Positions 2,452 to 51,052 of a DNA stretch of 64,000 nucleotides are shown here, one piece after another. The stretch comes from Candidatus Aminicenantes bacterium (GTDB taxonomy: Bacteria; Acidobacteriota; Aminicenantia; Aminicenantales; Saccharicenantaceae), in the NCBI GenBank assembly GCA_963807525.1, contig CAWECI010000025.1:26062-90061 (forward strand), read 5' to 3'. A program made the translations under genes and the position numbers. Under the pieces are notes generated by a model. It was not told the origin of the DNA. It searched no databases and worked only from the letters and a program-made list of their open reading frames with translations. Numbering within the stretch: the stretch's first letter is position 1; every line of letters starts with the position of its first letter.

Positions 2452-3570
2452 ATGTTCCGCCCGCGACGCCGGATATCCTTGCCCTCCGCCGCGGCCGTGC
2501 CCTTCCTTCCGCTGGTCATCGTTCTGGCCGGCTGCCAGGTTTCTCAGATCCCCTCCGAGCCGATCCGCCCTAATAAGGTCGTCATGGGCTACTATCGGAC
2601 CTCGAACCGGGCCGTGCTCGATCATACCCAGATCGCCTACCGATATCTGACCCACATCGCCCACGCCTTTGCCTGGCCCGACGCCTCCGGCAACCTGGTC
2701 GTACCCGACGGCTTCCTTTACCCGGAGCTCAACGCCGCCGCTCACGCGAGCGGCGTCAAGATGATCCTCAGCCTCGGCGGCTGGGGCAACTGCGACGGCT
2801 TCCCGGGCATGGCCTCGACGGCCGAGAACCGGGCCCGGTTCATCGGCCAGCTCGTCGGCTTCTGCAAGTCCCATGCGTATGACGGCGTCGACATCGATTG
2901 GGAGTTCGTCTCGAACGATCAACAGAAGTCCGATTTCAGCCTCTTCGTTGAGGCCCTCAGCGCCGCCTTCAAGGCTCAGTCCCCGCCCCTCCTTCTGACC
3001 ACAGCCACCCCGTCGGATAAGTACTACGGCCGCTGGATCGATTACGAACGCCTGGCCGACGACTTCGACTTCATCGGTTTCATGACTTACGATTATCATG
3101 GCAACTGGTCCGACCACGCGGGCCACAATTCTCCGCTCTATACGCCCTCGTGGGACGCCTGCGGCTCGGTCGACGGTACGTTCATTTACGCCCGGAGCCG
3201 CCAAGTCCCGCTGGCCAAGCTCCTCATCGGGGTGCCGTTCTTCGGCCGGTCCTTCGATTGCGGCGGCATGGGCCGGGCCTTCACCGCGAGCCAGGGCTGG
3301 GATTACACGGCCGTCATGTCCCTCTCGGGTCCGTCCTGGTCCCGCGTCTGGGACAGCGAGGCCCAGGTCCCTTACATGCGCCGGAACGACGGCGGCATGG
3401 TCATCTCCTACGACGACATGAGCTCGGTCGGGCTCAAGTGCCAATACGTCAAGGACAAGGGCTCGGCCGGGGTCATCATCTGGGAGCTCAGCGGGGACTT
3501 CCGGTCCGGCGCCTCCGAGCTCTTGGAAGTCGTCGGGAAGTCTTTCGGGGCTTCGACCGGGCGCGATTGA
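2452..3570 (+). CDS. GH18 family chitinase/endo-beta-N-acetylglucosaminidase-like lipoprotein
   Basis: 372 aa; signal peptide + LAGC lipobox; canonical GH18 catalytic motif YDGVDIDWEF. Confidence 0.75.
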   Translation: MFRPRRRISLPSAAAVPFLPLVIVLAGCQVSQIPSEPIRPNKVVMGYYRTSNRAVLDHTQIAYRYLTHIAHAFAWPDASGNLVVPDGFLYPELNAAAHASGVKMILSLGGWGNCDGFPGMASTAENRARFIGQLVGFCKSHAYDGVDIDWEFVSNDQQKSDFSLFVEALSAAFKAQSPPLLLTTATPSDKYYGRWIDYERLADDFDFIGFMTYDYHGNWSDHAGHNSPLYTPSWDACGSVDGTFIYARSRQVPLAKLLIGVPFFGRSFDCGGMGRAFTASQGWDYTAVMSLSGPSWSRVWDSEAQVPYMRRNDGGMVISYDDMSSVGLKCQYVKDKGSAGVIIWELSGDFRSGASELLEVVGKSFGASTGRD

Positions 3571-3596
3571 CGATCCTATTCTGAGAGGTGATCACG

Positions 3597-5921: not shown

Positions 5922-5924
5922 ATA

Positions 5925-5997
5925 AAATGGGGACGTTTCTATTTATTTTTTTCATGATGGACGAAGATGAATAAAAAAAATAGAAACGTCCCCATTT
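5925..5997 (+). terminator. palindromic element (20-bp arms AAATGGGGACGTTTCTATTT / AAATAGAAACGTCCCCATTT) followed by TTTCTTTCTCC; likely rho-independent terminator of GH42 gene; member of a repeated family
   Basis: perfect inverted repeat read directly; starts 4 nt after GH42 stop; T-rich tail. Confidence 0.6.
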
Positions 5998-6090
5998 CTT
6001 TCTCCCGGTCGTCAACTGCGCCATGATCGTCGGCCTGACCCTCGTCGGCAGACTGAGGGCGGGCCGGCCGGCGCGGAAGGAGAGCGCATC

Positions 6091-8856
6091 ATGAGGCCAC
6101 GGAACGGATCCCGGTCCCTTTTCCCGCTCGTCGCGGGTTTCCTCTTCGTCTTCGGCGCGATGGCCTTTGCCCAGGACGCCGCGACCGCTGCGGCGCAAAA
6201 GGAGCTCAGCCAAAAATACGCCCAGCTCCTGGCCGAAAAGGGCGTCACCGACGAGGCCGGCCGGGAGATCGGCGGCCGCTTGGAAAAGATCTTCGCCGAG
6301 GCCCGCGCGGCCGGCGCCAGGACCTCCAAGGACCTGGTCAGGTTCGCCCTCACGGCCATGAACTACGCGGCCTCGAACCTGGCCGGCTTCCCGCAGGCCG
6401 CGTTCGACCGGCCCATCGGCACGCGGCTCGAGAAGTTCGGCCACGCCATCGCGCCGGGCGATATCGAGGCCCGGGCCGAAGGCTCCGGCTGTCCGGTCGG
6501 CGGCCTCGGCGCCGGCGGCTTCGAGCGGCTCATGAACGGCAATTTCTCGACCTGGTTCCTCAAGCTCGGCTGGATGGTCGAGGACACGGTCTGGGCCGAC
6601 CAGTTCCATGTCTTCGTCAGGTCCGGCGGCCGGACGGTCGCCAAGACCCTCTCCACGACCGCCCCGCCCGCCGCCGCCGGCCTGGGCGCCTGGGCCTGGA
6701 GCTATCCCGTCGGCCGGGGCGACTATTTCGCCCTCTTCCCCAAGTCCGGCTTCTCGTACGAAGAGAACGCCGACCTGCCCGTCAGGCTGGCCGTCGTTCA
6801 GTTCTCGCCGATCCTGTCGGGCAACTATAGGGAGACGAGCTATCCCGTCGCCATCTATAAATGGATCGCCCAGAATCCGACCCAGCAGCCGGCCCAGGTC
6901 AGCATTCTCCTGACCTGGGAGAACATGGTCGGCTGGGAGCCGGTCGAGGCCCGCCCGGCGGCCGGCCAGGCGCCCCAGGCCTCCTTCGTCTGGGACCGCC
7001 GCAGCGCCGGGAACTTGAACGAGACCGTGCAGGACGGCCGGGCCAAGGGCGTCTTGTTCCGCCGGCAGGGCCAGAACGTCCGGACGGGGAACGCCATGTC
7101 CGGGTCCATGGCCATCGCCGCCCTGGAGAGCCCGGACAAGTCCCGGGTCCTCATCCAACCCGCCTTCGACCCGCGCGGCGACGGCACCGACGTCTGGGCG
7201 AAGTTCGCCGCGGACGGGACGCTCGAGACGTCCCGGACCTCCTCGCCCGCGGGGCCGGGCCAGGAGACGGGCGCGGCCGTGGCCGTCACCTTCACCCTCA
7301 AGCCGGGCGAGCGTCTCGAAGTGCCCTTCGCCGTCGCCTGGGACCTGCCGTACTACGAGTTCGAGGCCGGGGCCAAGCACAAGAAGAAATACACGGACTT
7401 CTTCGGCGACGGCGGCCTGAGCGCCTTCCGCATCGCTGCCGAGGCCCTGGTCCGGGCGGGGGAGTGGGAACAGGCCATCGACGCCTGGCAGAAGCCGAGC
7501 CTGACAAACCCCGCCCTTCCGGACTGGTTCCGGCAGGCCCTGCTCAACGAGCTCTACGTCCTCGTGGAGACCAGCATCTGGGACGCGGCGACCAACCTTC
7601 ACACCTATCTCGAGAGCGCGGACTACCTCATGTACGGGACGACCGACGTCGATTCCTATTGCTGGCACGTCCTGCGCCTCTGGCCGGAGCTCGAGACGAC
7701 CCACATGAGCTATCTCGCCGGGACCATCCCGCTCGAGGACGCCTCCTACCGGGCCTTCCAATACGCGACCGTGTTCCCGAACGAAGTCCCAGCCGACAAG
7801 AAGGACTATTACTGGAACACGATCAAGCAGGCCGGCATGGTCCCCCACGACGTCGGCTCGCCGCGCAAGCGCCCGTGGACGATCCTGAACGCCTTTGATT
7901 GGCAGAACGCCAACTACTGGAAGGACATCAACCCGAAATTCCCGCTTCGCGCCTACCGGGACTTCCTGGCCACCGGCGGCATCGACATCGGCTTCCTGAT
8001 GAAGATGTTCCAGGCCTCGGTCCTGGCCCTGGACACGCTGGAGGCCCGCTTCGGTGACAGGATCAGCCACGTCCCGCTCGCCGAGGGCATCCCCGACCAG
8101 ACCTATGACACCTGGCGGATGAAAGGGGAGAGCGCCTACGTCGGGCTGCTATGGCTGGCCGGGCTCAAAGCCACGGTCCGCATGGGCGAGACGCTGGCCT
8201 CGCGCGGCCTCGTCCGGGCCGGGGACTTGGATATCCGCGAGATCCTAGTTAAATACAGGGGTTGGCTCGAAAACGGCCGGGCCTCTCTGCGCAAGCTCTG
8301 GGACGAGAGGGCCGGCTACTTTCATATCGACGCGACGAAGGACGACATCATGACCGACCAGCTGTTCGGCGTCTGGTACGCGGACATGCTCGGGCTCGAG
8401 GACGACGGCCGGGACCCGATCGTGCCGCCTGCGGACGCGGCCCGGGCCCTGCGGACGATCTACGACAAGAACGTTCTCGGCTTCGGCGGCGGCGTCATGG
8501 GCGCGGTCAACGGCCGCAAGGCCGACGGCGGCCAGCTCCGCAGCCAGCAGGGCGACGAGGTCTGGGTCGGCACGGCTTACGCCTTCGCCGCCGACCTCGT
8601 TCTCCACGGTCTCCCGGCCGAGGGCCTTCACACCGCTTACGGCGTCTATCAGGTCGTCTATAGTCCCTATGGACAGGGTTATTTCTTCAAGACGCCGGAG
8701 GCCTATCTCGACCCCGACGAAACCCTCTGGAACGATCCGGCCGGGAAGTACGGCGAGAAGACCTTCCGGGCCATGAAGTACATGCGGCCGGGCGCCGTCT
8801 GGGCCCTTTATGAGGTTCTCAGAAAAAATGCGGAAAAGCCGGTACAGAACAAGTAA
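6091..8856 (+). CDS. large secreted (alpha/alpha)6-type glycoside hydrolase, GH116/glucosylceramidase-like
   Basis: 921 aa, signal peptide (AMAFAQDA); size and two-domain layout resemble GH116 (DUF608); family call is tentative recall. Confidence 0.4.
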   Translation: MRPRNGSRSLFPLVAGFLFVFGAMAFAQDAATAAAQKELSQKYAQLLAEKGVTDEAGREIGGRLEKIFAEARAAGARTSKDLVRFALTAMNYAASNLAGFPQAAFDRPIGTRLEKFGHAIAPGDIEARAEGSGCPVGGLGAGGFERLMNGNFSTWFLKLGWMVEDTVWADQFHVFVRSGGRTVAKTLSTTAPPAAAGLGAWAWSYPVGRGDYFALFPKSGFSYEENADLPVRLAVVQFSPILSGNYRETSYPVAIYKWIAQNPTQQPAQVSILLTWENMVGWEPVEARPAAGQAPQASFVWDRRSAGNLNETVQDGRAKGVLFRRQGQNVRTGNAMSGSMAIAALESPDKSRVLIQPAFDPRGDGTDVWAKFAADGTLETSRTSSPAGPGQETGAAVAVTFTLKPGERLEVPFAVAWDLPYYEFEAGAKHKKKYTDFFGDGGLSAFRIAAEALVRAGEWEQAIDAWQKPSLTNPALPDWFRQALLNELYVLVETSIWDAATNLHTYLESADYLMYGTTDVDSYCWHVLRLWPELETTHMSYLAGTIPLEDASYRAFQYATVFPNEVPADKKDYYWNTIKQAGMVPHDVGSPRKRPWTILNAFDWQNANYWKDINPKFPLRAYRDFLATGGIDIGFLMKMFQASVLALDTLEARFGDRISHVPLAEGIPDQTYDTWRMKGESAYVGLLWLAGLKATVRMGETLASRGLVRAGDLDIREILVKYRGWLENGRASLRKLWDERAGYFHIDATKDDIMTDQLFGVWYADMLGLEDDGRDPIVPPADAARALRTIYDKNVLGFGGGVMGAVNGRKADGGQLRSQQGDEVWVGTAYAFAADLVLHGLPAEGLHTAYGVYQVVYSPYGQGYFFKTPEAYLDPDETLWNDPAGKYGEKTFRAMKYMRPGAVWALYEVLRKNAEKPVQNK

Positions 8857-8924
8857 GGCGCTGGCGGGGCGTCCAGGATTGCTCGGCGGGTGCGAATCGG
8901 CTAGATTGGTATGATGAGGTTCGA

Positions 8925-11006
8925 GTGAGATCCGCCCGGCTCTGGGCCATGGCCCTGCTTCTGGCCCTGGCCGCACCGCCGTCTTTCGGCCAGGCCAAGA
9001 CCGCCTTGCCCGAGCGCTTTAAAAAGTGGCTCGACGAGGAGGTCGTCTATATCATCACCCGGCATGAGCGGCAGGTCTTCCTCGAGCTCCGGACGGACCG
9101 GGAGCGCGACATCTTCATCGAGGCCTTCTGGAAGCACCGCGATCCGCTGCCGGAGACGCCGCGGAACGAGTTCGAGGAGGAATACCACCGCCGCGTGAGC
9201 TACGCCAACTCGACGTTCGGCCGGTCGACTCCGCTGCCGGGCTGGAGGACCGACCGCGGCCGCATCTATATCCTGCTCGGGGAGCCCAAGAACATCGAGT
9301 CCTACTCGAACGTCAACGGGGTCTATCCTGCGGAGATCTGGTTCTATCTGGGCGATGAATCGCTCGGCTTGCCCGCCGGCTTCAACGTCATCTTCTTCAA
9401 ACGTCACGGGACCGGCGACTACGTCCTTTACTCGCCGTCCGCGGACGGGCCGCAGGCCCTCATCGCCGATCCCTTGTCGGCCTACGATAGCCTGTCCTCC
9501 AGCCGCGCCATGACCGACGACCAGCGGGCTTACAGGGCCCTGCAGAATCTCGAGCCGAACCTGGCCCGCCAAAGCCTGAGCCTCGTCCCCAATGAAGGGA
9601 CCTCGGCCGGGATCGGGTCGCTGGCCTCCGACCGGCTCATCGCCAAGATCTTCGCGATCGCGGAGAAGGAAGTCCGGACCGACTACGCCGACGCCATCCT
9701 GAGATACAAGGATTCCGTCGAGGTCGAGTATACGGCCAACTATATCTCGAGCGACGTCCAGGTCCAGGTCATCCGCGACGCCGCGGGGGCGGGCTTCGTC
9801 CATTACACCATCGAGCCGGACAAGATCACGGCCGAGGAGATCGACGGGAAGTACGACATCCATTTCAAGCTGAACGGGCGGGTCTCGGACGCGGCGGGGA
9901 AAACGATCTACCAATTCGATAAGGACTTCCCCTTCGCCCTGAAGGCGTCTGAGCTCGAAGACTTGAAAGCGAAATCGCTCTCCATCCAGGACGTCTTTCC
10001 GCTCGTCCCCGGCACCTACAATTTCGACCTCCTCCTCAAGAACGTCCTGTCCAAAGAATTTACGGGGACGGCGAAAACCTTGGTCGTGCCCAGTCCCGGC
10101 GAGTCCGTCCGGATGGGTCCGCTTCTCTTGGCTTACGGCCTCCAGACCAAACCGGCCGCGGCCGGCGAACGCGTGCCCTTCAAGGTCGGCGATGATCAGC
10201 TGCTCTGTCAGGCCCGCAAGACGTTTGGGACCGGCGATTCCCTCGTCCTCTTCTTCCAGGTCTTTGGGATCACCGATGGCCTGAAGACCGCAGGCGCGAT
10301 CCGCACGGACTTCCTGAAAGAGGACAAGCCCTTTTTGTCGCGGACGGCGAAGGCCGCGACCGTGGGGCCCGCCGGCAGCATCTTGGACGTCCAGCCCCTC
10401 AAGGATTTCCCTCCCGGCTATTACCAGGTCAGAGTGACGCTCGTCGACGGGCAGGGGAACGAGGTCGCTGGCAGCAAGGAGAACTTCGAGGTCTCTCTCG
10501 CCCCGGCCGTGCCCCGCCCGCTCGTCGTCTCCAGCGTCACCAAGTCTCCCGGCGACGCGGACAGCCTCTACGCCACGGGTCTGCAGCTGCTCAACCGGGG
10601 CGACCTCGCGCCAGCTCGGGCCCGCCTGGCCGAGGCCCATGCCCAGGCGCCCGGACGGGCCGATGTGGCGATCTCGTTCGCCCAGGCCCTCTATCTGCTC
10701 AAGGAATATCAGCGAGTGAAGGACATCCTGGCGCCCTGGGCGGGCGAGGCGGCGCCGGCTCCTCAGGTCCCCGCCCTTCTCGGCCAGGCCTGCCACGCCC
10801 TAAGGCAATACGAGGAGGCGGCAAAGCACTACGCGTCCTATCTCACCCGGTTCGGCGCGAACATCGACATCCTGAACGATCTCGGGATGTGCCAGTATCA
10901 AATGGGGAACACCGCCGAAGCGCTCAAAGCCTGGACGAAATCGCTCGAGCTTAATCCGGACCAGGGCCAGGTCCGGTCGCTGGTCGAGTCCCTGAAGAAG
11001 AAGTGA
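8925..11006 (+). CDS. GWxTD-domain protein with C-terminal TPR repeats
   Basis: 693 aa; signal peptide; hallmark GWRTDRGRIYILLGEP (GWxTD domain); TPR-like C-terminus. Confidence 0.75.
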   Translation: MRSARLWAMALLLALAAPPSFGQAKTALPERFKKWLDEEVVYIITRHERQVFLELRTDRERDIFIEAFWKHRDPLPETPRNEFEEEYHRRVSYANSTFGRSTPLPGWRTDRGRIYILLGEPKNIESYSNVNGVYPAEIWFYLGDESLGLPAGFNVIFFKRHGTGDYVLYSPSADGPQALIADPLSAYDSLSSSRAMTDDQRAYRALQNLEPNLARQSLSLVPNEGTSAGIGSLASDRLIAKIFAIAEKEVRTDYADAILRYKDSVEVEYTANYISSDVQVQVIRDAAGAGFVHYTIEPDKITAEEIDGKYDIHFKLNGRVSDAAGKTIYQFDKDFPFALKASELEDLKAKSLSIQDVFPLVPGTYNFDLLLKNVLSKEFTGTAKTLVVPSPGESVRMGPLLLAYGLQTKPAAAGERVPFKVGDDQLLCQARKTFGTGDSLVLFFQVFGITDGLKTAGAIRTDFLKEDKPFLSRTAKAATVGPAGSILDVQPLKDFPPGYYQVRVTLVDGQGNEVAGSKENFEVSLAPAVPRPLVVSSVTKSPGDADSLYATGLQLLNRGDLAPARARLAEAHAQAPGRADVAISFAQALYLLKEYQRVKDILAPWAGEAAPAPQVPALLGQACHALRQYEEAAKHYASYLTRFGANIDILNDLGMCQYQMGNTAEALKAWTKSLELNPDQGQVRSLVESLKKK

Positions 11007-11084
11007 CCCCGGCCTCCCGCGCCCGCCGCGCTTGAAAATGGCCTCCAGCCGCGTTATCCTTGGAGGCCGCTCTGGCGGACAGTC

Positions 11085-13430
11085 ATGAAGCCCAAGATCG
11101 CGGTGCTCACCGTGGCGGCGCTCGCGTTCGCCGCCGGGCTGTGGTTCGTTCTCCATCCCGCGGGAGATCCGGCGCGGACGGTCGCCCGGCGCTGGTCGTC
11201 CCTCGGCGTCGAAAAGCCCAACATCATCCTCTTCTCTCTCGACACGACGAGGGCCGACCACCTCGGGTGCTACGGCTATGGCGAGGCCCAGACCCCGACC
11301 ATCGATGCTCTGGCCGCTCGCGGCGTCCTGTTCGAACAAGCGGCGACAGCCGTCCCGCTGACCCTTCCGGCGCATTGCACGATCATGACCGGCCTGTATC
11401 CGACCTACCATGGGGTCCGGCTCAACGGGAACACCGCGCTCGGGGACGAGCAGACGACCCTGGCGGAGATCTTCGCCGCCCGCGGGTATCAGACGGGAGC
11501 CTTCATCGGGGCCTTTGTCCTCGACGGGCGATGGGGATTGAAGCAGGGCTTCCAGCATTACGACGACCGGTTCGACCTGAAGAAGTACAAACATCTCGAC
11601 CTGGGCGCGATCCAGAGACCCGGCGATCAAGTCATGGATGCCGCGCTGGCCTGGCTCGGGGAGCACCGCCGGGACCCGTTCTTTGCCTGGATCCATCTCT
11701 ACGATCCCCATATCCCCTATGAGCCGCCAGAGCCCTATGCCAGCGAATTCCGCGGGCGCGGGCTCACGGGCCTCTATGACGGCGAGATCGCGTTCATGGA
11801 TGCGCAGATCGGCCGGTGCGTGGCCTGGCTGGCGGCGAACGGCCTGGCCAAGACCACGGTCCTCCTCCTCATCGGCGACCACGGGGAGGGGCTGGGAAGC
11901 CATGGCGAGGCCACACACGGGTTCTTCATCTATGACTCCGTCGTCCACGTGCCGTTCCTCATCGTCACGCCTTTCCCCGAACTTCAAGGCCGCCGCGTGG
12001 CCGCCCAAGTCAGCTCGGTCGACGTGGCCCCGACCCTTTTAGATCTCGCCCGGCTCCCGGCCTTGCCTCAGATGCAAGGACGTTCCCTTCTGCCCGCGAT
12101 GTTGCGGCCGGGGAAGGGACGGGAGGGCCAGGCCTATTCGGAATCCCTGGTGCCGGACCTCCAGTTCGGCTGGAGCCCCCTGCATTCCCTGCGGACGGCA
12201 GGGTTCCAATTCATCGATGCCCCCAGGCCAGAGCTTTATGACATTCACCGGGACCCGGACGAAGGGACGGATCTTTCCCCGCGGCGGGCCGATCTCGCCC
12301 GGACGATGAAGAGCGAGCTGGACCGCCTCATGGAGGAGACAAGCCGGGACGCCCCGAAGCCGCAGGCGGCGAATCTGGACAAAGAGACGATGGAGCGATT
12401 GTCGGCCCTGGGATACATCGGCGCGCCCGTCGGCCGTAGGAGCCGGTCCGGGGACCGCTCCAAGCCACTCGCCGATCCCAAGGACAAGCTGGCGATCTTC
12501 GAGGCCGTGACCCAGGCCGGCGCGATGATCATGACCGAGCAGTATGACGCCGCGGCGGGCCTCCTCGAAACCGCTCTCAAAGACGATCCGACGATCACCC
12601 AGGGCCTGCTCCTCCTCGCGACCTGCGATGTCCACCGGGGACGGCGGGACGAGGCCAAGGCCCATCTCGACTTCATCCTCCGGGAGGATCCCGAGAACAT
12701 CCAGGCCCTCATCGCCTTGGCCGATATCCTGGTCGGGGACGGGAAGAGCGAGGATGCCATCGCCCTCTGCCGGCGAACCCTTTCCGTCGACGAGAACAAC
12801 GTCGAAGCATACATGCTGATCGGCGAGACCTATGCCGGTCAGGACGACCATGTCCACGCCCTTCCTTATCTGGAAAAGGCGGTCGAGCTCCAGCCGAAGC
12901 TGACCCGCAACCGCTTCAACCTGGCGGCCAGCCTGATAGGGGTCAAGCAGTTCGACCGGGCCGAGGCCCTCCTGAAGGACATCATCCGGGAAGCTCCGAG
13001 ATTCCCCCGCGCCAACTACGATCTCGGGCTGCTCTGCGAAGAGCAGGGCCGGCTCGAAGAGGCCCGGGCCGCCTACACCCAAGAGCTGTCCCTATTCCCC
13101 CAGGAATTCCAGGCCCGGTTCAACCTGGGCAAGGTCCTGCTTCGGCTCGGCGACCGTTCCGGATACATGGACTGCATGCGTAAGGTCGTCGAGGTGGCTC
13201 CCCGGCGAGCCGAAGGATACCTGTTTCTTGCCCGGGGCCTCCTCCTCGAGCCGGGGCCGCTCGACGGAATTAGGGACCTCATCGAAAAAGGTCTTTCGTT
13301 CGCCCAGACGTCCGAGCTCAAGGCCTTCGGCTTTTTTCTCCTCGCTGACGTCTATAACCGAAGCGGGGAGCCGGGCAAGATGAACGACGCCTTGAGGAAA
13401 GCCAACGCCTACAGGTCCAAGAAGGAGTAA
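11085..13430 (+). CDS. membrane-anchored sulfatase-like (alkaline phosphatase superfamily) hydrolase fused to TPR repeats
   Basis: 781 aa; N-terminal TM; FSLDTTRADHLGCYGY, LLLIGDHGEGLGSHGE sulfatase-like motifs; long TPR tail. Confidence 0.7.
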   Translation: MKPKIAVLTVAALAFAAGLWFVLHPAGDPARTVARRWSSLGVEKPNIILFSLDTTRADHLGCYGYGEAQTPTIDALAARGVLFEQAATAVPLTLPAHCTIMTGLYPTYHGVRLNGNTALGDEQTTLAEIFAARGYQTGAFIGAFVLDGRWGLKQGFQHYDDRFDLKKYKHLDLGAIQRPGDQVMDAALAWLGEHRRDPFFAWIHLYDPHIPYEPPEPYASEFRGRGLTGLYDGEIAFMDAQIGRCVAWLAANGLAKTTVLLLIGDHGEGLGSHGEATHGFFIYDSVVHVPFLIVTPFPELQGRRVAAQVSSVDVAPTLLDLARLPALPQMQGRSLLPAMLRPGKGREGQAYSESLVPDLQFGWSPLHSLRTAGFQFIDAPRPELYDIHRDPDEGTDLSPRRADLARTMKSELDRLMEETSRDAPKPQAANLDKETMERLSALGYIGAPVGRRSRSGDRSKPLADPKDKLAIFEAVTQAGAMIMTEQYDAAAGLLETALKDDPTITQGLLLLATCDVHRGRRDEAKAHLDFILREDPENIQALIALADILVGDGKSEDAIALCRRTLSVDENNVEAYMLIGETYAGQDDHVHALPYLEKAVELQPKLTRNRFNLAASLIGVKQFDRAEALLKDIIREAPRFPRANYDLGLLCEEQGRLEEARAAYTQELSLFPQEFQARFNLGKVLLRLGDRSGYMDCMRKVVEVAPRRAEGYLFLARGLLLEPGPLDGIRDLIEKGLSFAQTSELKAFGFFLLADVYNRSGEPGKMNDALRKANAYRSKKE

Positions 13431-13433
13431 CCC

Positions 13434-14396
13434 ATGAACGACCGGATCCGTCGATGGCGGAGCGTCCTTGTCCTTCTCCCGGTCCTTGTCGTCGTGGGTC
13501 GGGGCTTCGGCCAGTACCGTGAATATTACGTCACCGGCAAGGTCCTGGACACGCAGAAGGCGCCCCTCGAAGGGGTGGAGGTCACCCTCGTCGACGTCCA
13601 GACGAACCTGAACTTCACCGAGAGGACGAAAAAGGACGGCGCCTTCAAGTTCGCCGGCCTGTCGCACGGGCGCTACCGGGTCGTCTTCAAGAAAGCCGGG
13701 TTCGCCGAGAAGAAGGACGAATGGAATTTCGAACGGCCTCAGGAGCGGATGGTGAGATTCGAGGTCCCGCCCGTCATCCTCGCCACCCAGGAATTCGCTC
13801 TGGAGTCCGCGCGCCTGAAAGAGGCGGCCGCGGGCGACAAGGAAGCGGCCGAGAAGGTCCGGCAAGGCGATTATGACGCCGCGATCGTTAAACTGGAAGC
13901 GATCCTCGAAAAGAGCCCCAAGGACACCAACGCGCTCTATCTCCTGGGGTTGGCCCATCTCAAGAAAAAGGAGTTCGCCGCGGCGCTGCCGCCGCTCCTC
14001 CAGGTCGTCGAATTGACCCCGGCCTTCCCGGCGGCCCATTATTATCTCGGCGTCTGCTATCAGCAGCAGAACGAGCCGGAGAAGGCCCTCGAAAGCTACC
14101 GGAAAGCCTCCGAGCTCGATCCCTCCAATCCCGACAACCTCTATGATACGGGCCTGGTCCTTTTCGGCCTGAACCGGATCGACGAGGCGCTGGCCTCCTT
14201 TGCCAAGACGCTGGCCCTGAAGCCGGACGATCCGGCCGCCCTCGAAATGATGGGCCGGTGCTACATCAATCAAGCCAATTTCCCCAAGGCCGCCGAGTAC
14301 CTGGAAAAAGCCAAAGCCGGATACGCCGCCGACCCCGAAAAGGTCAAGTTCCTGGACGATCTCATAGCCCGTGTGAAGGAGCAGATCAAGAAGTAA
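13434..14396 (+). CDS. CarboxypepD_reg-like domain protein with TPR repeats
   Basis: 320 aa; 4-nt gap to upstream gene; YYVTGKVLDT...GRYRVVFKKAGF beta-sandwich motif; TPR repeats. Confidence 0.6.
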   Translation: MNDRIRRWRSVLVLLPVLVVVGRGFGQYREYYVTGKVLDTQKAPLEGVEVTLVDVQTNLNFTERTKKDGAFKFAGLSHGRYRVVFKKAGFAEKKDEWNFERPQERMVRFEVPPVILATQEFALESARLKEAAAGDKEAAEKVRQGDYDAAIVKLEAILEKSPKDTNALYLLGLAHLKKKEFAAALPPLLQVVELTPAFPAAHYYLGVCYQQQNEPEKALESYRKASELDPSNPDNLYDTGLVLFGLNRIDEALASFAKTLALKPDDPAALEMMGRCYINQANFPKAAEYLEKAKAGYAADPEKVKFLDDLIARVKEQIKK

Positions 14397-14490
14397 AGAG
14401 GCTTGACAAAGGGGGCCGACTTAAAGAAAAATCAGAGCCAGAGTTTTCGCGGATCGGCGCGATCGAGGGTTCACCTCGGGAGGAGGAAAA

Positions 14491-17400
14491 ATGGAACGGC
14501 TCAAGAAGATCCTAGCTCTGTCATTTGTCCTGATCTTCGGTCTCGCGGGCCTGACCGTGACTGCGGCCCGGGCCCAGTCCGTCCTCGAGGGGAAGATTCT
14601 GGGCACGATCACCGATGATCAGGGCGAAGCCCTGCCCGGCGTGTCCGTCCAGATCGAGGGTCCGAAACTCATGGGCAAGAAGACCGCCGTCACCACGGCC
14701 AAAGGGGCGTTCGTGTTCCTGGCCATGCCGGCCGGGACCTATTCGATCACGGCCAGCCTGCCCGGTTTCAAGACCATGAAGGAGGACCATGTCATCCTGC
14801 CGGTCGGGACGACGATCACGGTCAACCTCGTCCTGCCGGCCGGGAAGATCGAGGAAACGGTGACCGTCACCGTCGCGTCCCCCGTGATCGATGTCAAGAC
14901 CTCCACGATCGACTCCAAGATCAACCAGGACATGCTGGCCAAGCTGCCTACGAGCCGCGATTCGTGGTACGACCTGTCCCTCACGACTCCGGGCATGTTC
15001 GACACGGGCGCGGCCATGCAGTCGAGTCCCACGGCCTACGGGGAATCGGGGCAGGGGAACATCTTCCTGGTCAACGGCGTCGATACGACCAACCCGTCCG
15101 GCGCGGGCTTCGGCTCCATGATCAACGTCAACTACAACACCATCCAGGAGGTCCGGGTCATCTCCCTGGGTTCCAAGGCGGAATTCGGGAACTTCTCGGG
15201 CGCGGCCATCGACGTCGTGACCAAATCGGGGTCCAACACCCTCTCGGGTTCCCTGAGCCTGTACAGCCAGGTGGGCGTCCCGAAGACCGGGGTTCCGTCC
15301 GCCAACAGTCTAGGGCGCGATTGGCTGTTCGTGGCCCCAGGAACGACGTTCGATTTCTACCCGAAGCGGGACTGGGAGCTGGACCTGACGTTGGGCGGCC
15401 CCGTGATCAAGGACAAGCTCTGGTTCTTCGCGGCCGGGAACCTCCTCGGCAACAAGGAGAAGCTGTTGAATTGGACGCCGCTGTCCCACTGGAACGGGCG
15501 CTACGCCGACATCAAGATCTCAGCCAATCCGTTGAAGAACCATCGGGCCTGGGTCGCCTACCACTACGAGGACAACAACAGCGGCGGCACGACCGACGGG
15601 ACCCTCAATTGGGACCAGAGCATGGAATACGACAACAAGACCAAGAGCCAGTCCCTCTCTGCCCAGTGGCAATGGTTCCCCTCGACCACGACGTTCCTGT
15701 CGGCGAAATTCCTCGGCTTCATGGTCGATGGCCGGCCCGCGCTCCCGAGCGGACACGCGACCTTTCCGGGACTGATCAATTGGTGGAAGGCCCTGCCGAC
15801 CGACGGCGCGGCCGGCGGCGCTTTCGAAGCCTTCTATGGGAACGTCTCGAGCCGGTCCACGATCCAAGCGGACCTGTCCCATTACGCCGAGAATTTCCTG
15901 GGCGAGCATGACATCAAGTTCGGGGTCCAGTACACCCGCGGCCGCAAGAACGACCTCATTGGGAATTTCTTCTCCAAGAACCTGACCAACCCGGACACGA
16001 GCGAGGACCTGGGCCTCATGGGCTATTACCAGTTCGGCTACATCGCCGGCTACACGTATTCCAGCATCGACGCGCAGAACTATTATTATGGCATCGCCGG
16101 CCAGGACGGCCTGGTCATGAATGTCAATACGTATTACGCGGCCCCGCGGAAGACTGTCCGCACGGCCGACTCCGTAGGGTTCTTTTTTGACGACCAATGG
16201 ACCCCCACCAAGCGCCTGACCTTCAACATCGGCGTGCGGTACGACCTCATGACCGCCAAGTTCGGCCAGGGCGCGATCTACCTACAGCCCTCGACGCCCG
16301 AGGGCTTCGCCGGCTCGCTCGACATTGTCCGGACCCGCCAGGGTTCGGGGAACCTGTTCGACTTCAAGTGCTTCTCGCCGCGGTTGGGCCTGACCTACCA
16401 ATTGACCAAGGACGGGAAGACAGCCCTGCGGGCCAGCTACGGCAGGTATTACACGCCGCTCGGCGTCGAGAGCTTCGGGTCCGGCGGTCCCGACCAAGAC
16501 CGGACCTATAGCACCACCCAGTACTACCTCATCCCCTGGGATGACCTGGACGCGAATGGGGACGGCGTTCTCTTCGATGCGGAGACCATGAACGCCACGC
16601 GCTACCTGCTGAATGGCATCCAGGACGGGACGCTGACGCCGATCAACGCCGTCGTGACCTCCAATTCAGGCGGCGAGCTGGACTATCGCAATACCTTCGC
16701 GATCTACGATCCCACTTTGAATCCTTGGTCGCTGAAGGTCAGTCCCGGCCTGAAAAACCAGCACACCGATCAGTTCACGATCAGCCTGGAGCGCGAGATC
16801 TTCCCCAATTTCTCCTTGGCCCTGACGTACATCAACCGGGACACGAGGGACATGATCGTGGAGTGGCCGATCAATAAGGTCACCGGCCAGCCTTGGGACT
16901 ACGAACCGAAGACGGAGGTCGTCAACGGCCAGACGGTCACCCTCTGGAGCATCATCCTCGATGACTACAACGGGGACGGGGTCATCACCAACGGGCAAGG
17001 CGGCGATATCCAATGGGTCGGCCAGAACCATGACATCGTCTGGATGAACCTTCCGGCCTGGGATGGCCATAAGCCCCGGCGCCTGTTCCAGGGCCTGCAG
17101 CTGACCTTCTCCAAGCGCTACTCCGACCGCTGGCAGCTGTTTGGATCGCTCCTCTGGAATCATTCGAGCGGCCCGGCGGGCCGCAATAAGCGCCAGGACG
17201 AGGACTATAACCTCGAAGGCAGCAACATCTGGAGCGATCACTGGGTCGCCGGGGTCAACCAGCTGGTCAACAACATGATCGGCCCCCTGCCCTTCACCCC
17301 GCGTTTCGAATTCAAGATCAACGGCAACTACACCATCCCCGGGATCGAGCTCGATGTGGCCCTGCGCTTCCGTTTGCACACGGGCCGTCCGGTTTGGGTC

Positions 17401-17742
17401 CTCACGCAGATCCCGGACTTGATCACCACGCTGACCGATCTCGACGATACGGAGGCTTTGGCCCACGCCGTGCTGACCACGGGCGGGAACCAGATCATCG
17501 CCCAGGATCCCACCAAGCCGCTCTATATGCCGGCCCTGAAGATCCTCGACCTGCGCCTCGAGAAGAGTTTCCGGCTGGGCCGGGTGAAGACGTCTTTCAT
17601 TTTAGACGTCTTCAATCTCTTCAATTCCCAAGACGTGACCAACGCTTATACCAAGTTCGTCGAAGGAGTCGACCAAGTCGGCCAGATCACTGGCATCGTG
17701 GCTCCCCGCAAGTATCGGGCGGGCCTCGAGTTCACGTTCTAA
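14491..17742 (+). CDS. TonB-dependent receptor-like outer-membrane protein with N-terminal CarboxypepD_reg domain
   Basis: 1083 aa; AGGAGG 5 nt upstream; signal peptide; CarboxypepD_reg N-term; plug-like region; C-terminal ...GLEFTF (terminal Phe of beta-barrel OMPs). Confidence 0.75.
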   Translation: MERLKKILALSFVLIFGLAGLTVTAARAQSVLEGKILGTITDDQGEALPGVSVQIEGPKLMGKKTAVTTAKGAFVFLAMPAGTYSITASLPGFKTMKEDHVILPVGTTITVNLVLPAGKIEETVTVTVASPVIDVKTSTIDSKINQDMLAKLPTSRDSWYDLSLTTPGMFDTGAAMQSSPTAYGESGQGNIFLVNGVDTTNPSGAGFGSMINVNYNTIQEVRVISLGSKAEFGNFSGAAIDVVTKSGSNTLSGSLSLYSQVGVPKTGVPSANSLGRDWLFVAPGTTFDFYPKRDWELDLTLGGPVIKDKLWFFAAGNLLGNKEKLLNWTPLSHWNGRYADIKISANPLKNHRAWVAYHYEDNNSGGTTDGTLNWDQSMEYDNKTKSQSLSAQWQWFPSTTTFLSAKFLGFMVDGRPALPSGHATFPGLINWWKALPTDGAAGGAFEAFYGNVSSRSTIQADLSHYAENFLGEHDIKFGVQYTRGRKNDLIGNFFSKNLTNPDTSEDLGLMGYYQFGYIAGYTYSSIDAQNYYYGIAGQDGLVMNVNTYYAAPRKTVRTADSVGFFFDDQWTPTKRLTFNIGVRYDLMTAKFGQGAIYLQPSTPEGFAGSLDIVRTRQGSGNLFDFKCFSPRLGLTYQLTKDGKTALRASYGRYYTPLGVESFGSGGPDQDRTYSTTQYYLIPWDDLDANGDGVLFDAETMNATRYLLNGIQDGTLTPINAVVTSNSGGELDYRNTFAIYDPTLNPWSLKVSPGLKNQHTDQFTISLEREIFPNFSLALTYINRDTRDMIVEWPINKVTGQPWDYEPKTEVVNGQTVTLWSIILDDYNGDGVITNGQGGDIQWVGQNHDIVWMNLPAWDGHKPRRLFQGLQLTFSKRYSDRWQLFGSLLWNHSSGPAGRNKRQDEDYNLEGSNIWSDHWVAGVNQLVNNMIGPLPFTPRFEFKINGNYTIPGIELDVALRFRLHTGRPVWVLTQIPDLITTLTDLDDTEALAHAVLTTGGNQIIAQDPTKPLYMPALKILDLRLEKSFRLGRVKTSFILDVFNLFNSQDVTNAYTKFVEGVDQVGQITGIVAPRKYRAGLEFTF

Positions 17743-17763: not shown

Positions 17764-17797
17764 GGGGAGTGCCCCGCACTCCCCCCGGTTCTTTTCA
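17764..17797. terminator. bidirectional rho-independent terminator between convergent TBDR and deacetylase genes
   Basis: GGGGAGTGC-ccc-GCACTCCCC 9-bp stem followed by CCGGTTCTTTTC. Confidence 0.65.
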
Positions 17798-17818: not shown

Positions 17819-18648
17819 TTAAATCGAGCCCAGCATCTTGTCGATGCGGACGAACTCGTAACCCCTTTTCTTGAGTTCGTCGATCAAGTCGCCCAGCCTC
17901 AAATAGAATTTATCGGTGCGGGCGGGGTCCGTCCCGATGTGGATGAGCAGGATGAAGCCGTCGAGGCCGTGGGGGTCCTTCTTCTCGTAGGCCAGGACGC
18001 GGTCGTAGATCGCCTGCGACGCGAGGTATTCCGGCATGTCGGGGGTCGTATAGTCGGCGTTCGACGATGTGCCCGGGGTGAAATTGAAGAGGACGAGATC
18101 GAGCTCCCGGGCCCAGGCGGCGATCGTCCGGTTGTACCATTCGTACGGCGGGATGAAGAGGTGGCCCTTCTCGCGGGCGATGCCGAACCGGCCCATCTCG
18201 CGGAAATTGGCCTCGAGGTCGGCCCGGAATTCCGCTTGCGTGACGAGCGTCTTGTCCCGGTCGTCCCAGGGGCAATAGAGCAGGTGCTTGTCGGAGTGAG
18301 GCCCCAGATAATGGCCGTCGGCGGCGAGGCCCCGGATGAGACCTTCGAATTCGGGGGCCCGATAGAAATCCCCGGTGAAGAAAAAGCCCGCCTTGACGGC
18401 CCTGTCGCGGAGGACCTTGCGGATGGACTCGCCGCCCTCCCCGAACGACCCGCCGGTGAAGATCAAGGCCAGGCGCCGGACCGATGCGTCGCCGCGGATA
18501 ATGCCGTCGTGGTCCTTGGCGAAGGCGCCCGGCCCCGGGCGGCCCGGCAGGACGGCGCGGCGAGAACGGCCGCCGCCAGCGCCAGGGCCAGGGCGATCGG
18601 CCGGGAACCGGCCGCGGCGCCGCCCCGGCGCTTTCGGACGGACGTCAT
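17819..18648 (-). pseudogene. polysaccharide deacetylase (CE4/NodB-like) with apparent -1/+1 frameshift between signal peptide and catalytic domain
   Basis: signal peptide ORF 18648..18463 (MTSVRKRRGG...ALALALAAAVLA) is in a different frame from the catalytic body 18466..17819; body frame reads open upstream (…PGPGAFAKDHDGIIRGDASVRRLALIFTGG) without a start codon; shift lies in GC homopolymer run ~18540-18560. Confidence 0.5.
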
Positions 18649-21458
18649 TTCTCGGAAGCCACGACGTTCCAGCCCCGGACCTTGACCACCGGCAGCTCGC
18701 CGCCGAGGTCCTCGGTCGAGAACATCACCGAGATCTTCCGCGTCTCCTTCGGGAGCAGCGTGACGTAGTTGTCATCGAAATAAACGGGCAGAACGATCTC
18801 GCCGGAGACGTCACGGACGACCCGCATCTCGATCATCAGGGCCAGGTCGTCCGAGGGGTTCGCGAGCTCGACCGTGATCTTGGTCATCGGCCCTTCCGTG
18901 GACGATCTGTCCTTGACCTTGAGGGTCACCGTCTTGAGGGCGTTGAGAGCGGTCAGATCGGCGAAATCCTTGATCGGCGTGACGTACCAGGTGGAGTTGG
19001 CTTCGTCGAGCGTCTCCGGCTTCGTCGACAGGCAGTAGAAGTTGGCGTCGACGAGCGTGTTCTTATCCTTGAAGACGCGGAGGTCCAGGAAGTAGGTCGG
19101 GGACAGGCCCGCCGGCAGCCGCAGCACGTCGATCGTCTTGACCTCGTCGGCCAGGAGCCCGAAATCGACCGATTTGGCGATGACCTCCTTCAGGCCGAAG
19201 TCGAGGACCCGGATGGCCGCCCGGAGCTTCGGCGCCGGCTCGGCCGCGCTGCTGACGGCGACGATCTCCTGGTTGCCGTAGTTGTAGAGGATGTGGACCG
19301 GCTCGCCGGCCTTGCGGGCGCCGTAGAAGGCCCCCGTCGGCTGGAGGGAATAGTCGTAGAGCTGCCACCAGAGCTTGGGCCAGGCCGAGTTGTACATCCA
19401 CTGGATGACCCCCGTCGCCTTGTACTTGTTGGCGACGAAGGCCTCGAACATGGCCCGCATGGCCTCGTAGTTCAGGAACTGGGCCTTGCGCAGGTAGTCC
19501 TCGAGGTCCTTGGCCGGCCCGAGCCTTTTCTCCAGGGCCTGGTTGTAGCGGCCGAGGTCCTTGAACATGCCGCGGCTGCAATGGAAGTTCCAGACGTCGT
19601 TGATGGGCCAGAGCTTGTCCTCCGGGATCATCTTGCGCAGGCTCTCGAGGGGAGGGACCTGCGGCCCGGGCCCGGTCTCGGTGTTGAAGCCGTAAGCGCC
19701 GCCGTTCTCCGTGTCGACGTACCAGTAGACCGGCGGGACGTAGTCATAGGGCCCGCGCATCTTGACGCCGGAGGGGCCGGTGATCGTGCTCGTCTTGTCC
19801 TTGGTCGAGACGAGCGTCGGCCGGGTCGGGTCGATCTCCTTCATGATCTCGATGTAGCGCTTTTCGAGGTCAGGATGGGGGATCATGTCGCTGCCCTCGG
19901 CCCAGGCGAAGATGGACGGATGGTTGCGCAGCCACAGGATCTGGTCCTTCCAGGAGGCGGCCACGAGGTCCATGAGCTCCGGGGTGACGATGCCGCCGTA
20001 AGGCTCGTCGGCCGGGCGGCCCAGGTAGTCGGTCCATTCCCAGTGGCAGCTCCAGCCGACCATGATCAGGATGCCGTTCTCGTCGCAGAGGTTGTAGAAG
20101 TCCTGACCCGTCCCCCAGAAGCCCTCGAGCCGGAGCGCGTTGAGGTTGGCCTGCCGGGCGTAGAGGATCTGGGCCCGGAGCTTGCGGGGCTTGGCGTCGA
20201 GGAGCATGTCGTCGGCCCAGCCGCCGCCGCGGATGAGGATCTTGCGTCCGTTCAGCTTGAAGCCGCGGAAGCCGGCCTCGGTGCGGTAGTCCGAGATCTC
20301 GCGGATGCCGAACCGGACGGCCCGGGAATCGGACGGCATGACGCGCGGCGTCCCGGGCATGCGGCGAAGCTCCGTCTTTTCGGGCTTTTCGCCCTTCTCC
20401 TGGGTCTTGTCGGGCGGGGCGGCCGGCGCGCCGGCTTTCTCGGCGCCCTTGAGGGTGAAGGACAGGCCGAGCAAATAGAGCTCAGGCTTGCCCAGGTCGT
20501 GCGTCCACCAGACCCGCGGGTCCTTGATGACGAGCTCGGGGGTCGTCTCCGGCGCGAGCTCGATCTTTTTCGTCTCGCCCCGCAGCAGGGTCACCTCGCG
20601 CGAAAAGCTCGTGCCGCCGATCCGGCCCTCGAGGGTGCCCGTCAGGTCCCGGTCGGCGTGGTTCACGAGATCCGCCGTCACGGTCAGGCGGGCCTCTTTG
20701 AACGCGGCCAGGTCGAGCTTGGTGATGACAAAGGGGTTCTCGATCGAGACGTCGCCGGTCGCGCGGACCCGGATGTCGCGGAACAGGCCCATGGCCTTGT
20801 CGGGCGGCTCCGGGCTCCAATCGACCCAGCCGATCGTCGGCTCGCCGGGCTTCGGCGGGAAGACCTCGACCGCCAGGACGTTCTTCTCCGTCCGCTTGAC
20901 GTGCGCCGTGACGTCGATCGTAAAGCGCCGGTAGGCGCCGAAGATCTGCCCGGCGTCGCCGATCTTCTGGCCGTTGAGCCAGATGTTGGCCCGATAGTTG
21001 ATGCCGTCGAACTCGAGCCACGTATGGGTCAGGCCCGGTCCGCCGGGAACGGTGAACTCCTTGCGATACCACCACGACACCTCGAACGGGGCCGTGGGCA
21101 CCTTGTCCAGGTTCTTGTCGAAGAAGATGTCCTGATAAACGTTGTTCTCGACCAGCGTGCCGAGAACGGACGAAGGCACCACGGCGGGATACCAAGTGTC
21201 GATCTTGAACCCCGGCTTGGAGATCTGCTCGCCCGGGCCCTTGACCTTCTCGGAGGACTGAATGTACCAAAGTTCGCCGAGGCTGACACTGCGGTCGAAG
21301 ACGGGGCCCATCTTGGCCCGGGGCTCGGGCCGTTCCTGCATCGGGTTCATGTACTGGGCCCAGCCCGACGGCGGCAGGGCGAACAGGGCGGCCAGGAGAG
21401 CGGCGGCCGCGGCGAGCTTAAGGGCGGGACGAAGGGCTCGAGTCGGCTGGATGGTCAT
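18645..21458 (-). CDS. GH2 family glycoside hydrolase (exo-beta-D-glucosaminidase / beta-mannosidase-like)
   Basis: 937 aa; signal peptide; GH2 sugar-binding motif NIWLNGQKIGD, FRGFKLNGRKILIRGGGW, NHPSIFAWAEGSD. Confidence 0.7.
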   Translation of the reverse strand: MTIQPTRALRPALKLAAAAALLAALFALPPSGWAQYMNPMQERPEPRAKMGPVFDRSVSLGELWYIQSSEKVKGPGEQISKPGFKIDTWYPAVVPSSVLGTLVENNVYQDIFFDKNLDKVPTAPFEVSWWYRKEFTVPGGPGLTHTWLEFDGINYRANIWLNGQKIGDAGQIFGAYRRFTIDVTAHVKRTEKNVLAVEVFPPKPGEPTIGWVDWSPEPPDKAMGLFRDIRVRATGDVSIENPFVITKLDLAAFKEARLTVTADLVNHADRDLTGTLEGRIGGTSFSREVTLLRGETKKIELAPETTPELVIKDPRVWWTHDLGKPELYLLGLSFTLKGAEKAGAPAAPPDKTQEKGEKPEKTELRRMPGTPRVMPSDSRAVRFGIREISDYRTEAGFRGFKLNGRKILIRGGGWADDMLLDAKPRKLRAQILYARQANLNALRLEGFWGTGQDFYNLCDENGILIMVGWSCHWEWTDYLGRPADEPYGGIVTPELMDLVAASWKDQILWLRNHPSIFAWAEGSDMIPHPDLEKRYIEIMKEIDPTRPTLVSTKDKTSTITGPSGVKMRGPYDYVPPVYWYVDTENGGAYGFNTETGPGPQVPPLESLRKMIPEDKLWPINDVWNFHCSRGMFKDLGRYNQALEKRLGPAKDLEDYLRKAQFLNYEAMRAMFEAFVANKYKATGVIQWMYNSAWPKLWWQLYDYSLQPTGAFYGARKAGEPVHILYNYGNQEIVAVSSAAEPAPKLRAAIRVLDFGLKEVIAKSVDFGLLADEVKTIDVLRLPAGLSPTYFLDLRVFKDKNTLVDANFYCLSTKPETLDEANSTWYVTPIKDFADLTALNALKTVTLKVKDRSSTEGPMTKITVELANPSDDLALMIEMRVVRDVSGEIVLPVYFDDNYVTLLPKETRKISVMFSTEDLGGELPVVKVRGWNVVASEK

Positions 21459-26857: not shown

Positions 26858-26922
26858 CCTGGACAATTCGTAAACTCGGCTCGTGAATTATCCAGGCTGA
26901 AATCGTTCATTTGGAGGACGTC

Positions 26923-28666: not shown

Positions 28667-28731
28667 CGAAGGGCCGACCCAGGCGCCGCCCCGGGCCGTC
28701 CGGGGCTCCGCCGGCGAGCCTCGCGCCGGAG

Positions 28732-32277: not shown

Positions 32278-32304
32278 ACTCCCGGAGGGACAGTCCCCGA
32301 CGGG

Positions 32305-32334
32305 TTGACACCGCCTCGCCAAACCCCCTAGAAT
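32305..32334 (+). promoter_or_regulatory. sigma70-like promoter GGGTTGACA-N18-TAGAAT overlapping annotated ATG 32333; implies leaderless start at ATG 32342
   Basis: hexamers read directly; -10 overlaps first ATG. Confidence 0.45.
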
Positions 32335-33586: not shown

Positions 33587-33638
33587 AGCCTTTCCTCCTC
33601 ATCCGTCTCGTGATAGACTCCGGCCTGAAGGAGAGACC

Positions 33639-34802: not shown

Positions 34803-34848
34803 GCCCCTTTTCCTTGTTCCCCCCTGGCCGGCCCCCCCAAAACCACCC

Positions 34849-51022: not shown

Positions 51023-51052
51023 AACGACTCCAGTTCCGTTGCTCGCGATGGG

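Follow-up and report, generated by a model that had tools for sequence, protein, structure and literature searches.

Carbohydrate utilisation loci containing TonB-dependent receptors (CUT loci) have been described from Xanthomonas and Caulobacter (PMC1790865). The Oar subclass of TonB-dependent transporters (TBDTs), represented by Oar of Myxococcus xanthus, combines a signal peptide with an N-terminal extension of the CarboxypepD_reg family (PF13620), a TonB box, a plug and a barrel; residues E118 and I122 of the Oar TonB box have been mutated, and Oar is needed for the export of the protease PopC (PMC6434023). Here we analyse a four-gene module within 64,000 nucleotides of a Candidatus Aminicenantes genome (assembly GCA_963807525.1, contig CAWECI010000025.1, positions 26,062 to 90,061), a stretch referred to below as the window. 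The module encodes a TBDT of Oar-type architecture and three further proteins, each of which ends in tetratricopeptide repeats (TPRs). Judged from its sequence, the locus is a TBDT-centred carbohydrate locus, which is a known type, with three uncharacterised conserved accessories, which are new. We favour a model in which an Oar-class transporter imports glycans together with three novel periplasmic accessories that carry TPR tails, and assign this uptake model as a whole a probability of roughly one half; the role suggested for any single accessory is much less secure than that.

The locus resembles the CUT loci in that its transporter gene is clustered with genes for glycoside hydrolases (GH) of families 18, 42 and 116 upstream, and for a carbohydrate esterase of family 4 (CE4), a GH2 enzyme and a GH38-like protein downstream, and in that related loci contain inner-membrane sugar transporters and a sugar-responsive regulator. 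It differs from them in that the three conserved TPR-tailed proteins, with GWxTD, CarboxypepD_reg and alkaline phosphatase (AP)-like domains respectively, are not part of the described CUT loci, and in that modules of the window's type also occur outside sugar loci. Its likeness to the SusC/SusD polysaccharide utilisation loci (PULs) lies in a TBDT with a CarboxypepD_reg-type extension beside a gene for a helical-repeat protein, and in a surrounding cluster of glycosidases, one of them a lipoprotein. However, the transporter scores 17.6 bits against the SusC/RagA model TIGR04056, whose cut-off is 368.25, none of the four proteins gave a SusD-family Pfam match, and the TPR gene precedes the transporter gene. 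The likeness to Oar is one of architecture, together with a terminal aromatic residue and a TonB-box-like segment at a comparable position, whereas no TPR partners have been described for Oar and the window's TBDT is found with three TPR proteins in a glycosidase and sugar-transporter locus. The best reading is that the locus is a CUT/PUL-like sugar-utilisation locus of which the four genes would be the envelope core, rather than a four-gene envelope operon of unknown function, as the original prediction had it.

Architecture of the module and its transporter

The four co-directional genes lie between positions 8925 and 17742 of the forward strand, in a region where G+C is 60-70%. They encode a GWxTD-TPR protein of 693 aa (G, 8925-11006), a sulfatase-fold or AP-like protein with TPRs (A, 11085-13430), a CarboxypepD_reg-TPR protein (C, 13434-14396) and the 1083-aa TBDT (B, 14491-17742); these letters are used below to describe gene orders. 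Each gene is supported by its open reading frame (ORF) and by hidden Markov models (HMMs), and both the common orientation and the domain assignments originally made for the four proteins were recovered, the latter with Pfam and NCBIfam models. The A-C junction, GGAGtaacccATG, consists of the TAA stop of the AP-like gene, 3 nt, and the ATG of the CarboxypepD_reg-TPR gene. The spacing had been described as tight, which it is, and as 4 nt, which needs correction, the true gap being 3 nt (13431-13433). A GGAG is located inside the 3' end of the AP-like gene, just upstream of the CarboxypepD_reg-TPR start, and this start is coupled to the AP-like stop. A terminator-like hairpin with a 9-bp stem (7 GC) and a T-rich tail follows on the same strand 22 nt past the transporter stop (17764-17784), and no RNA element was identified within the module by Rfam and tRNA scans. 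The co-directional run begins further upstream, with the GH18, GH42 and GH116 genes at 2452-8856.

The product of gene B opens with a signal peptide and a CarboxypepD_reg extension at aa 36-115 (PF13620, 58.5 bits, cut-off 32.3), followed by a plug, a long barrel and a C-terminal Phe. The barrel was matched by PF25183 (OMP_b-brl_4, 130.7 bits, cut-off 30) and by PF00593 (TonB_dep_Rec_b-barrel, 34 bits, cut-off 27). As a single sequence the plug gave 17.4 bits against PF07715, below the cut-off of 23.9; when 34 homologues of the transporter were combined into a profile, matches to the plug domains of Cir, FepA, YncD and PqqU were obtained at E-values of 2.7e-7 to 1.7e-5, and the plug of a paralogous transporter, at locus L049 of our set of related loci, scores 25.5 bits. 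Immediately after the N-terminal extension lies the TonB-box-like segment E-E-T-V-T-V-T-V (aa 121-128, 14851-14874, forward strand), in which E122 is invariant and E121, T125 and V126 are nearly invariant across the 34 homologues. Its sequence and conservation are compatible with its being a putative TonB box. On the basis of the plug profile matches, the barrel, the terminal Phe and this conserved segment we assign the barrel protein as a plug-containing TBDT with Oar-subclass architecture, which upholds the original description of a 1083-aa receptor-like barrel opening with a CarboxypepD_reg domain.

The CarboxypepD_reg-TPR protein has a beta-sandwich at aa 33-107 (PF13620, 52.6 bits), followed by a TPR array. 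Its signal peptide lacks a lipobox Cys, so that the protein would be periplasmic and not surface-exposed as SusD is. We considered it as a SusD analogue and rejected the idea, given the missing lipobox, the canonical TPRs and a beta-sandwich just 28% identical to the N-terminal extension of the transporter. All three TPR proteins had originally been described as exported; a signal peptide is present in this protein and in the GWxTD protein, whereas the sulfatase-fold protein has a signal-anchor-like N-terminal segment and is probably membrane-tethered.

The sulfatase-fold protein

The product of gene A, which the original prediction labelled a sulfatase, matches the Sulfatase family PF00884 at 163 bits. 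The catalytic scaffold covers aa 45-420 and is followed by ~270 aa of TPRs (~aa 470-735); SGSH_C was also matched, and PF01663 (Phosphodiest) gave 48.4 bits on aa 48-114, a range that includes the nucleophile segment. Sulfatase being the top Pfam match, and the closest solved relatives being S1 sulfatases (E 1e-33) of carrageenan, glycosaminoglycans and mucin, the locus might be read as one for sulfated glycans, in which a true sulfatase desulfates imported oligosaccharides. However, the C/S-x-P-x-R motif of sulfatases is replaced by T-L-P-A-H at aa 93-97 (11361-11375, forward strand). In the alignment with the wild-type iota-carrageenan sulfatase 6pt4, vplTLPAHctimTG of the query stands opposite tglCSPSRaamfTG, so that the formylglycine Cys is a predicted Thr nucleophile and the Arg is a His. 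TLP[AS]H or TLAAH is kept in orthologues and paralogues wherever the motif region is covered. All NCBIfam sulfatase models remain far below their cut-offs (arylsulfatase NF010322, 154.7 against 481; choline-sulfatase, 118.7 against 433), and no formylglycine-generating enzyme or anaerobic sulfatase maturase was identified among the Pfam-annotated ORFs of the window, a survey that is not exhaustive. We consider desulfation by this protein to be very improbable. The sulfatase label fails because the motif offers neither a Cys nor a Ser that could become formylglycine, even though the fold itself is present, and because this 'sulfatase' cannot be one, Pfam-based sulfatase counts in such genomes would be inflated.

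With the S1 sulfatases the protein shares the fold, the SGSH_C subdomain, the first metal-binding Asp and the GDHG motif, and it differs from them, besides the nucleophile, in having its own membrane anchor and its TPR tail. The nucleophile segment, T-L-P-A-H-x-T-I-M-T-G-L-Y-P-x-x-H-G, resembles the motif of the nucleotide pyrophosphatases/phosphodiesterases (NPPs), T-F-P-N-H...TGLYP..HG, a likeness that coincides with the Phosphodiest match. Outside this segment, the domain differs from NPPs in matching Sulfatase. We assign the protein as a threonine-nucleophile enzyme of the AP superfamily on a sulfatase scaffold, and not as a sulfatase; it is probably a phosphoesterase or phosphotransferase. 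A single hydrophobic segment is found at its N-terminus and resembles a signal anchor, which makes membrane tethering more probable than free export and implies that both its catalytic part and its TPRs should be on the periplasmic side.

The GWxTD protein and other contexts of its domain

The original prediction of a GWxTD domain is upheld by two models, TIGR04514 (116.3 bits, cut-off 28) and PF20094 (51.6 bits, cut-off 26.9). The protein consists of a signal peptide, the GWxTD alpha+beta domain, beta-sandwich domains and a C-terminal TPR array (~aa 540-690). The motif after which the domain is named reads GWRTD (aa 106-110, 9240-9254, forward strand) and falls within the GW.TDRG block of the family consensus; G106, W107 and D110 are invariant and T109 is nearly invariant among orthologues, and across three groups of GWxTD paralogues the first Gly is invariant and the Asp nearly so. 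Database searches returned 2108 matches to the protein, the best 120 clusters of which are full-length (~690 aa) and 60-88% identical, and those among them that carry names are from Aminicenantes or Acidobacteriota. The existence of such relatives among these best 120 indicates that the window's proteins are real. The public protein P0001 (685 aa) begins at the ATG at 8949, and the GTG at 8925 adds eight residues that include two Arg. The longer start is probably correct, since it gives a more typical signal-peptide n-region and matches the orthologue consensus.

The domain family comprises at least 8505 clusters at 50% identity (E up to 1e-3). Our literature search retrieved no paper mentioning GWxTD, and a search on Acidobacteria, TonB and the carboxypeptidase regulatory-like domain retrieved nothing. 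A first AlphaFold2 model of the full-length protein was discarded, as its alignment was shallow (43 orthologues, at least 60% identical), its pLDDT was 58 and residues 94-303 were disordered. With two further paralogue groups added to the orthologues (123 sequences), aa 24-535 were modelled at a pLDDT of 87.4 and a pTM of 0.76; the model has an alpha+beta domain of ~245 aa at the N-terminus and, after it, several beta-sandwich domains. Foldseek searches of the PDB with this model gave transglutaminases, RbmA and arrestin/VPS26 at E-values of 1e-9 to 1e-6 and TM-scores of 0.13-0.18; these matches appear to stem from the tandem beta-sandwich domains, and at such TM-scores we do not claim a transglutaminase-like core for GWxTD. 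Sequence and profile searches of the PDB with the GWxTD region gave TPR matches only, and permissive Pfam scans of its two halves gave nothing but GWxTD_dom.

A second context for the domain emerged from a scan of 19 GWxTD representatives with atypical architecture. In nine of these, from Acidobacteriota, a BlaR1-type Peptidase_M56 domain at the N-terminus precedes the GWxTD domains, of which there are usually two, and one of the nine (P0127, locus L088, Candidatus Acidoferrales) ends in a TonB_C domain; P0227/P0510 combine GWxTD repeats with Big_7 and VWA. In all three complete contexts (L086, 7612-10040; L087, 6939-10105; L090, 5493-8218) the M56-GWxTD gene directly follows a gene for a BlaI/Penicillinase_R repressor, and in one of them two CarboxypepD_reg-repeat proteins are encoded just upstream. 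The arrangement recalls BlaR1/BlaI (MecR1/MecI), with GWxTD in the sensor position, and it is likely that the domain also serves as the extracytoplasmic sensor domain of BlaR1-type transducers. Because it is placed where BlaR1 carries its sensor domain, and once between the membrane domain and TonB_C, GWxTD may be a periplasmic binding or sensing module, and the TonB_C fusion ties it to TonB-dependent systems independently of synteny.

These findings raise the alternative that the module is a trans-envelope signalling device in which GWxTD is primarily a sensor, and the TPR proteins do not aid transport but relay the occupancy of the transporter, or the sugar status of the periplasm, to regulators. 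Besides the transducers with their repressor genes and the TonB_C fusion, a ROK regulator embedded in the module at loci of the L033 type (see below) is in keeping with this. However, the GWxTD protein of the window differs from BlaR1 in that it lacks M56 and is a soluble periplasmic protein of GWxTD, beta-sandwich and TPR domains; neither it, nor the CarboxypepD_reg-TPR protein, nor the AP-like protein has an output domain (protease, kinase or DNA-binding), searches of the window and of 85 related loci gave no M56 homologue, and no regulator gene lies inside the window's quartet. Signalling as the primary function is therefore improbable in our estimation. On either account GWxTD, a large family, would gain its first functional context, as a periplasmic domain that is genetically tied to TBDTs and sugar uptake and has been reused as a BlaR1-like sensor.

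Recurrence of the module and its sugar-degradation neighbourhood

A scan of one genome per species gave 80 genome loci, in which the module was mapped with BLAST and family-built HMMs; most of the records are titled Aminicenantes or Aminicenantales, and many with placeholder or other titles (for example 'uncultured Eubacteriales') were taken as mislabelled. In 43 of the 80 the GWxTD protein is at least 47% identical to that of the window, and these were treated as orthologous. The complete quartet is present in 22 of the 30 orthologous loci that have at least 8.5 kb of upstream flank, so that the conserved synteny anticipated in the original prediction is borne out. The commonest order is A, C, B, G, with GWxTD last, and the window and L013 represent a minority order in which GWxTD has moved to the front. 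In ~20 orthologous loci A and C either are separated by a 3-nt gap, as in the window, or overlap by 4 nt. At L001 a second C-B pair follows the GWxTD gene, and C and B therefore duplicate as a unit. The AP-like/TPR gene of L001 was called as two overlapping ORFs (3199-3861 and 3806-5437), which suggests a frameshift, a pseudogene or an assembly error. Five metagenome or metagenome-assembled-genome loci with an exact protein match have the order MFS, GH116, A, C, B, G (MFS, major facilitator superfamily), with GH2, GH38-like, GH29 and CE4 genes on the opposite strand.

Several genomes carry paralogous loci alongside orthologous ones: CAZGJS (L002/L077), JAGNLW (L022/L078), JADBLN (L053/L074) and OY969586 (L031/L049). 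The paralogous loci contain a GWxTD-TPR gene whose product is 42-47% identical to that of the window, a short 310-aa GWxTD gene and a further GWxTD-TPR paralogue, each of these groups being itself highly conserved, together with a CarboxypepD_reg-TPR gene and a TBDT gene. An AP-like-TPR gene completes the four families at L077, L078 and L074; L049 lacks it and has three of the four. The flanks of the paralogous loci consist of housekeeping genes without glycosidases, namely PHP, GroEL and a fused LptFG at L077, and a TolC-like gene, a radical-SAM/B12 gene, ROK and LepA at L049. The LptFG gene of L077 (5047-7365), which adjoins the paralogous GWxTD module and GroEL, is one 772-aa ORF with two LptF_LptG matches and looks like a fused LptF-LptG permease.

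Since every locus that we retrieved is from one class, Aminicenantia, the adjacency of the four genes could in principle be without functional meaning and reflect only the shared ancestry of close genomes. We give this explanation hardly any credence: within one and the same genome the four families are found together again in paralogous loci whose flanks differ, C and B are duplicated as a pair at L001, and the tight A-C spacing is conserved. Because of the paralogous recurrence in particular, we regard the linkage of the four families as functional, as far as gene order can tell, and not as an inherited neighbourhood alone.

Around the orthologous modules the neighbouring genes are those of sugar degradation. 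In the window the co-directional run starts with a GH18 glycosidase (2452-3570, forward strand; PF00704, 218.6 bits) that has a lipoprotein-type signal (LAGC, in the N-terminus ...LVIVLAGCQ). It is followed on the same strand by a GH42-type beta-galactosidase-like protein with a signal peptide (3588-5921; PF02449, 152.9 bits; PF08532, 69.5 bits; a weak match to PF22369, the GlmA-like second domain) and by an exported GH116 glycosidase (6091-8856; PF04685, 282.5 bits; PF12215, 274.8 bits); in most of the close orthologous loci, too, a GH116 gene is found next to the module on its upstream side. Convergent to the transporter gene, on the reverse strand, are genes for a CE4 polysaccharide deacetylase homologue (17819-18466), 80% identical to the product of a PF01522 gene at L004, for an exported GH2 enzyme with a signal peptide and an exo-beta-glucosaminidase-type Ig domain (18645-21458; PF18368, 103.8 bits; PF22666, PF00703 and PF02836), and for a GH38-like protein that is a conserved neighbour (21558-24884; PF01074, 33.8 bits). 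Export signals are found on all of the neighbouring enzymes. A fucose-isomerase domain and a galactokinase are encoded further along the window.

Transporters and regulators appear in the related loci. At L033, a divergent orthologous locus, a regulator with ROK and helix-turn-helix domains is inserted between C and B (2892-4079) and a sodium:solute symporter (SSF) between B and G (7692-9290), and the GWxTD gene is followed by genes for an MFS transporter, ROK kinase and GH9 enzyme. ORFs occupy the same positions at L037 and L044, with homologues of the symporter, of GH9 and, at L044, of the regulator. MFS genes flank the module in 12 further loci, and across the related loci an SSF gene is present in four and a ROK regulator in eight. 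The original prediction had left uptake and assembly side by side. Uptake is favoured by a barrel that is a plug-containing TBDT, together with the exported glycosidases and the inner-membrane sugar transporters, ROK regulators and sugar kinases of the orthologous loci, and assembly is the less supported half.

According to the uptake model, a glycan containing N-acetylglucosamine or glucosamine, mannose, galactose and fucose would be processed by the exported GH18 lipoprotein, GH42, GH116, GH2 and GH38-like enzymes, joined by CE4 and GH29 in relatives, and oligosaccharides would be released outside the cell or in the periplasm. The TBDT (14491-17742) would carry these oligosaccharides across the outer membrane, and the three TPR-tailed proteins may assemble at its periplasmic face. 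In such a complex the CarboxypepD_reg-TPR protein would be a small partner at the periplasmic side of the transporter, the inner-membrane-anchored Thr-nucleophile enzyme might remove or transfer phospho-ester groups, and not sulfate, and the N-terminal GWxTD domain could be a periplasmic module that binds substrate or transporter/TonB, or that senses. MFS or SSF permeases, a ROK kinase, galactokinase and fucose isomerase would complete uptake and catabolism.

Several observations weigh against this model. No homologue of an inner-membrane sugar transporter was found in the 64-kb window, and the Foldseek search of the PDB gave no solved structure convincingly related to the GWxTD fold. The paralogous modules adjoin GroEL/LptFG or TolC-like/LepA genes without glycosidases, which indicates that the module itself is not tied to one substrate and that it might act in a different process of the envelope. 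Furthermore, the sole characterised Oar-class transporter is needed for the export of a protein, not for import (PMC6434023). With this precedent for Oar-dependent secretion and the shared architecture in mind, the module could be a machine for envelope assembly or export, whose plug-barrel protein works in the outward direction, like Oar with PopC, or which resembles the exopolysaccharide exporters PgaA/B, BcsC/G and AlgK/E, with the AP-like enzyme decorating a lipid or polymer. The LptFG, GroEL and TolC-like neighbours of the paralogous modules agree with this, as do the CE4 deacetylase next to the module and weak matches to PgaA, BcsC and LapB models. However, those matches are far below the cut-offs and confined to the TPRs, no gene for a glycosyltransferase, synthase or flippase was found in the module or its conserved flanks, and in divergent orthologues genes for sugar importers, ROK regulators and kinases are interspersed among those of the module. 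The AP superfamily enzymes with a Thr or Ser nucleophile include the envelope transferases EptA, LtaS and BcsG, which is in favour of a decorating enzyme, but EptA, LtaS and OpgB have a multi-helix domain for lipid access, whereas the AP-like protein has one predicted transmembrane segment. Taken together, we judge outward transport to be unlikely, and prefer the uptake model.

A broader proposal, which we put forward tentatively and hold to be less probable than the uptake model itself, is that the GWxTD-TPR, CarboxypepD_reg-TPR and Thr-type AP-like-TPR proteins form an unrecognised periplasmic complex that is the obligate partner of Oar-class TBDTs in Aminicenantes, and perhaps more widely in Acidobacteriota. 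This would be a new type of trans-envelope apparatus for uptake and sensing, in which the GWxTD domain binds transporter, TonB or ligand and has been recruited elsewhere as a BlaR1-type sensor. In sediments and digesters, the uncultured Aminicenantes are abundant degraders. Should the module serve them as the SusCD pair serves Bacteroidota, this would explain how glycans are captured without SusD and would add a new class of transporter accessory.

Some further features of the window were recorded. In the 1322-aa ORF that carries the fucose-isomerase domain (26911-30879), the N-terminal domain of L-fucose isomerase occupies aa 16-185, a PMT_2 glycosyltransferase-like region aa 815-915 and TPRs aa 1219-1306. 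This ORF may be an unusual fusion, or at least two separate genes may have been read as a single one; the AT skew at 28-30 kb is unusually strong (-0.24). The galactokinase gene (33639-34802) is located near genes for two calcineurin-like metallophosphoesterases and a pentapeptide-repeat protein (31165-36704), and fits the galactose-containing glycan proposed for the locus. At 36818-40082 a sigma-54-dependent response regulator is encoded beside a PAS hybrid histidine kinase, either of which could regulate nearby genes. Finally, G+C falls to 0.50-0.55 at 50001-55219, against ~0.65 elsewhere, in a segment that holds an ABC ATPase gene (51777-52601) and unannotated ORFs and ends at a tRNA-Gln gene (55146-55219, reverse strand), and that may be a horizontally acquired island.

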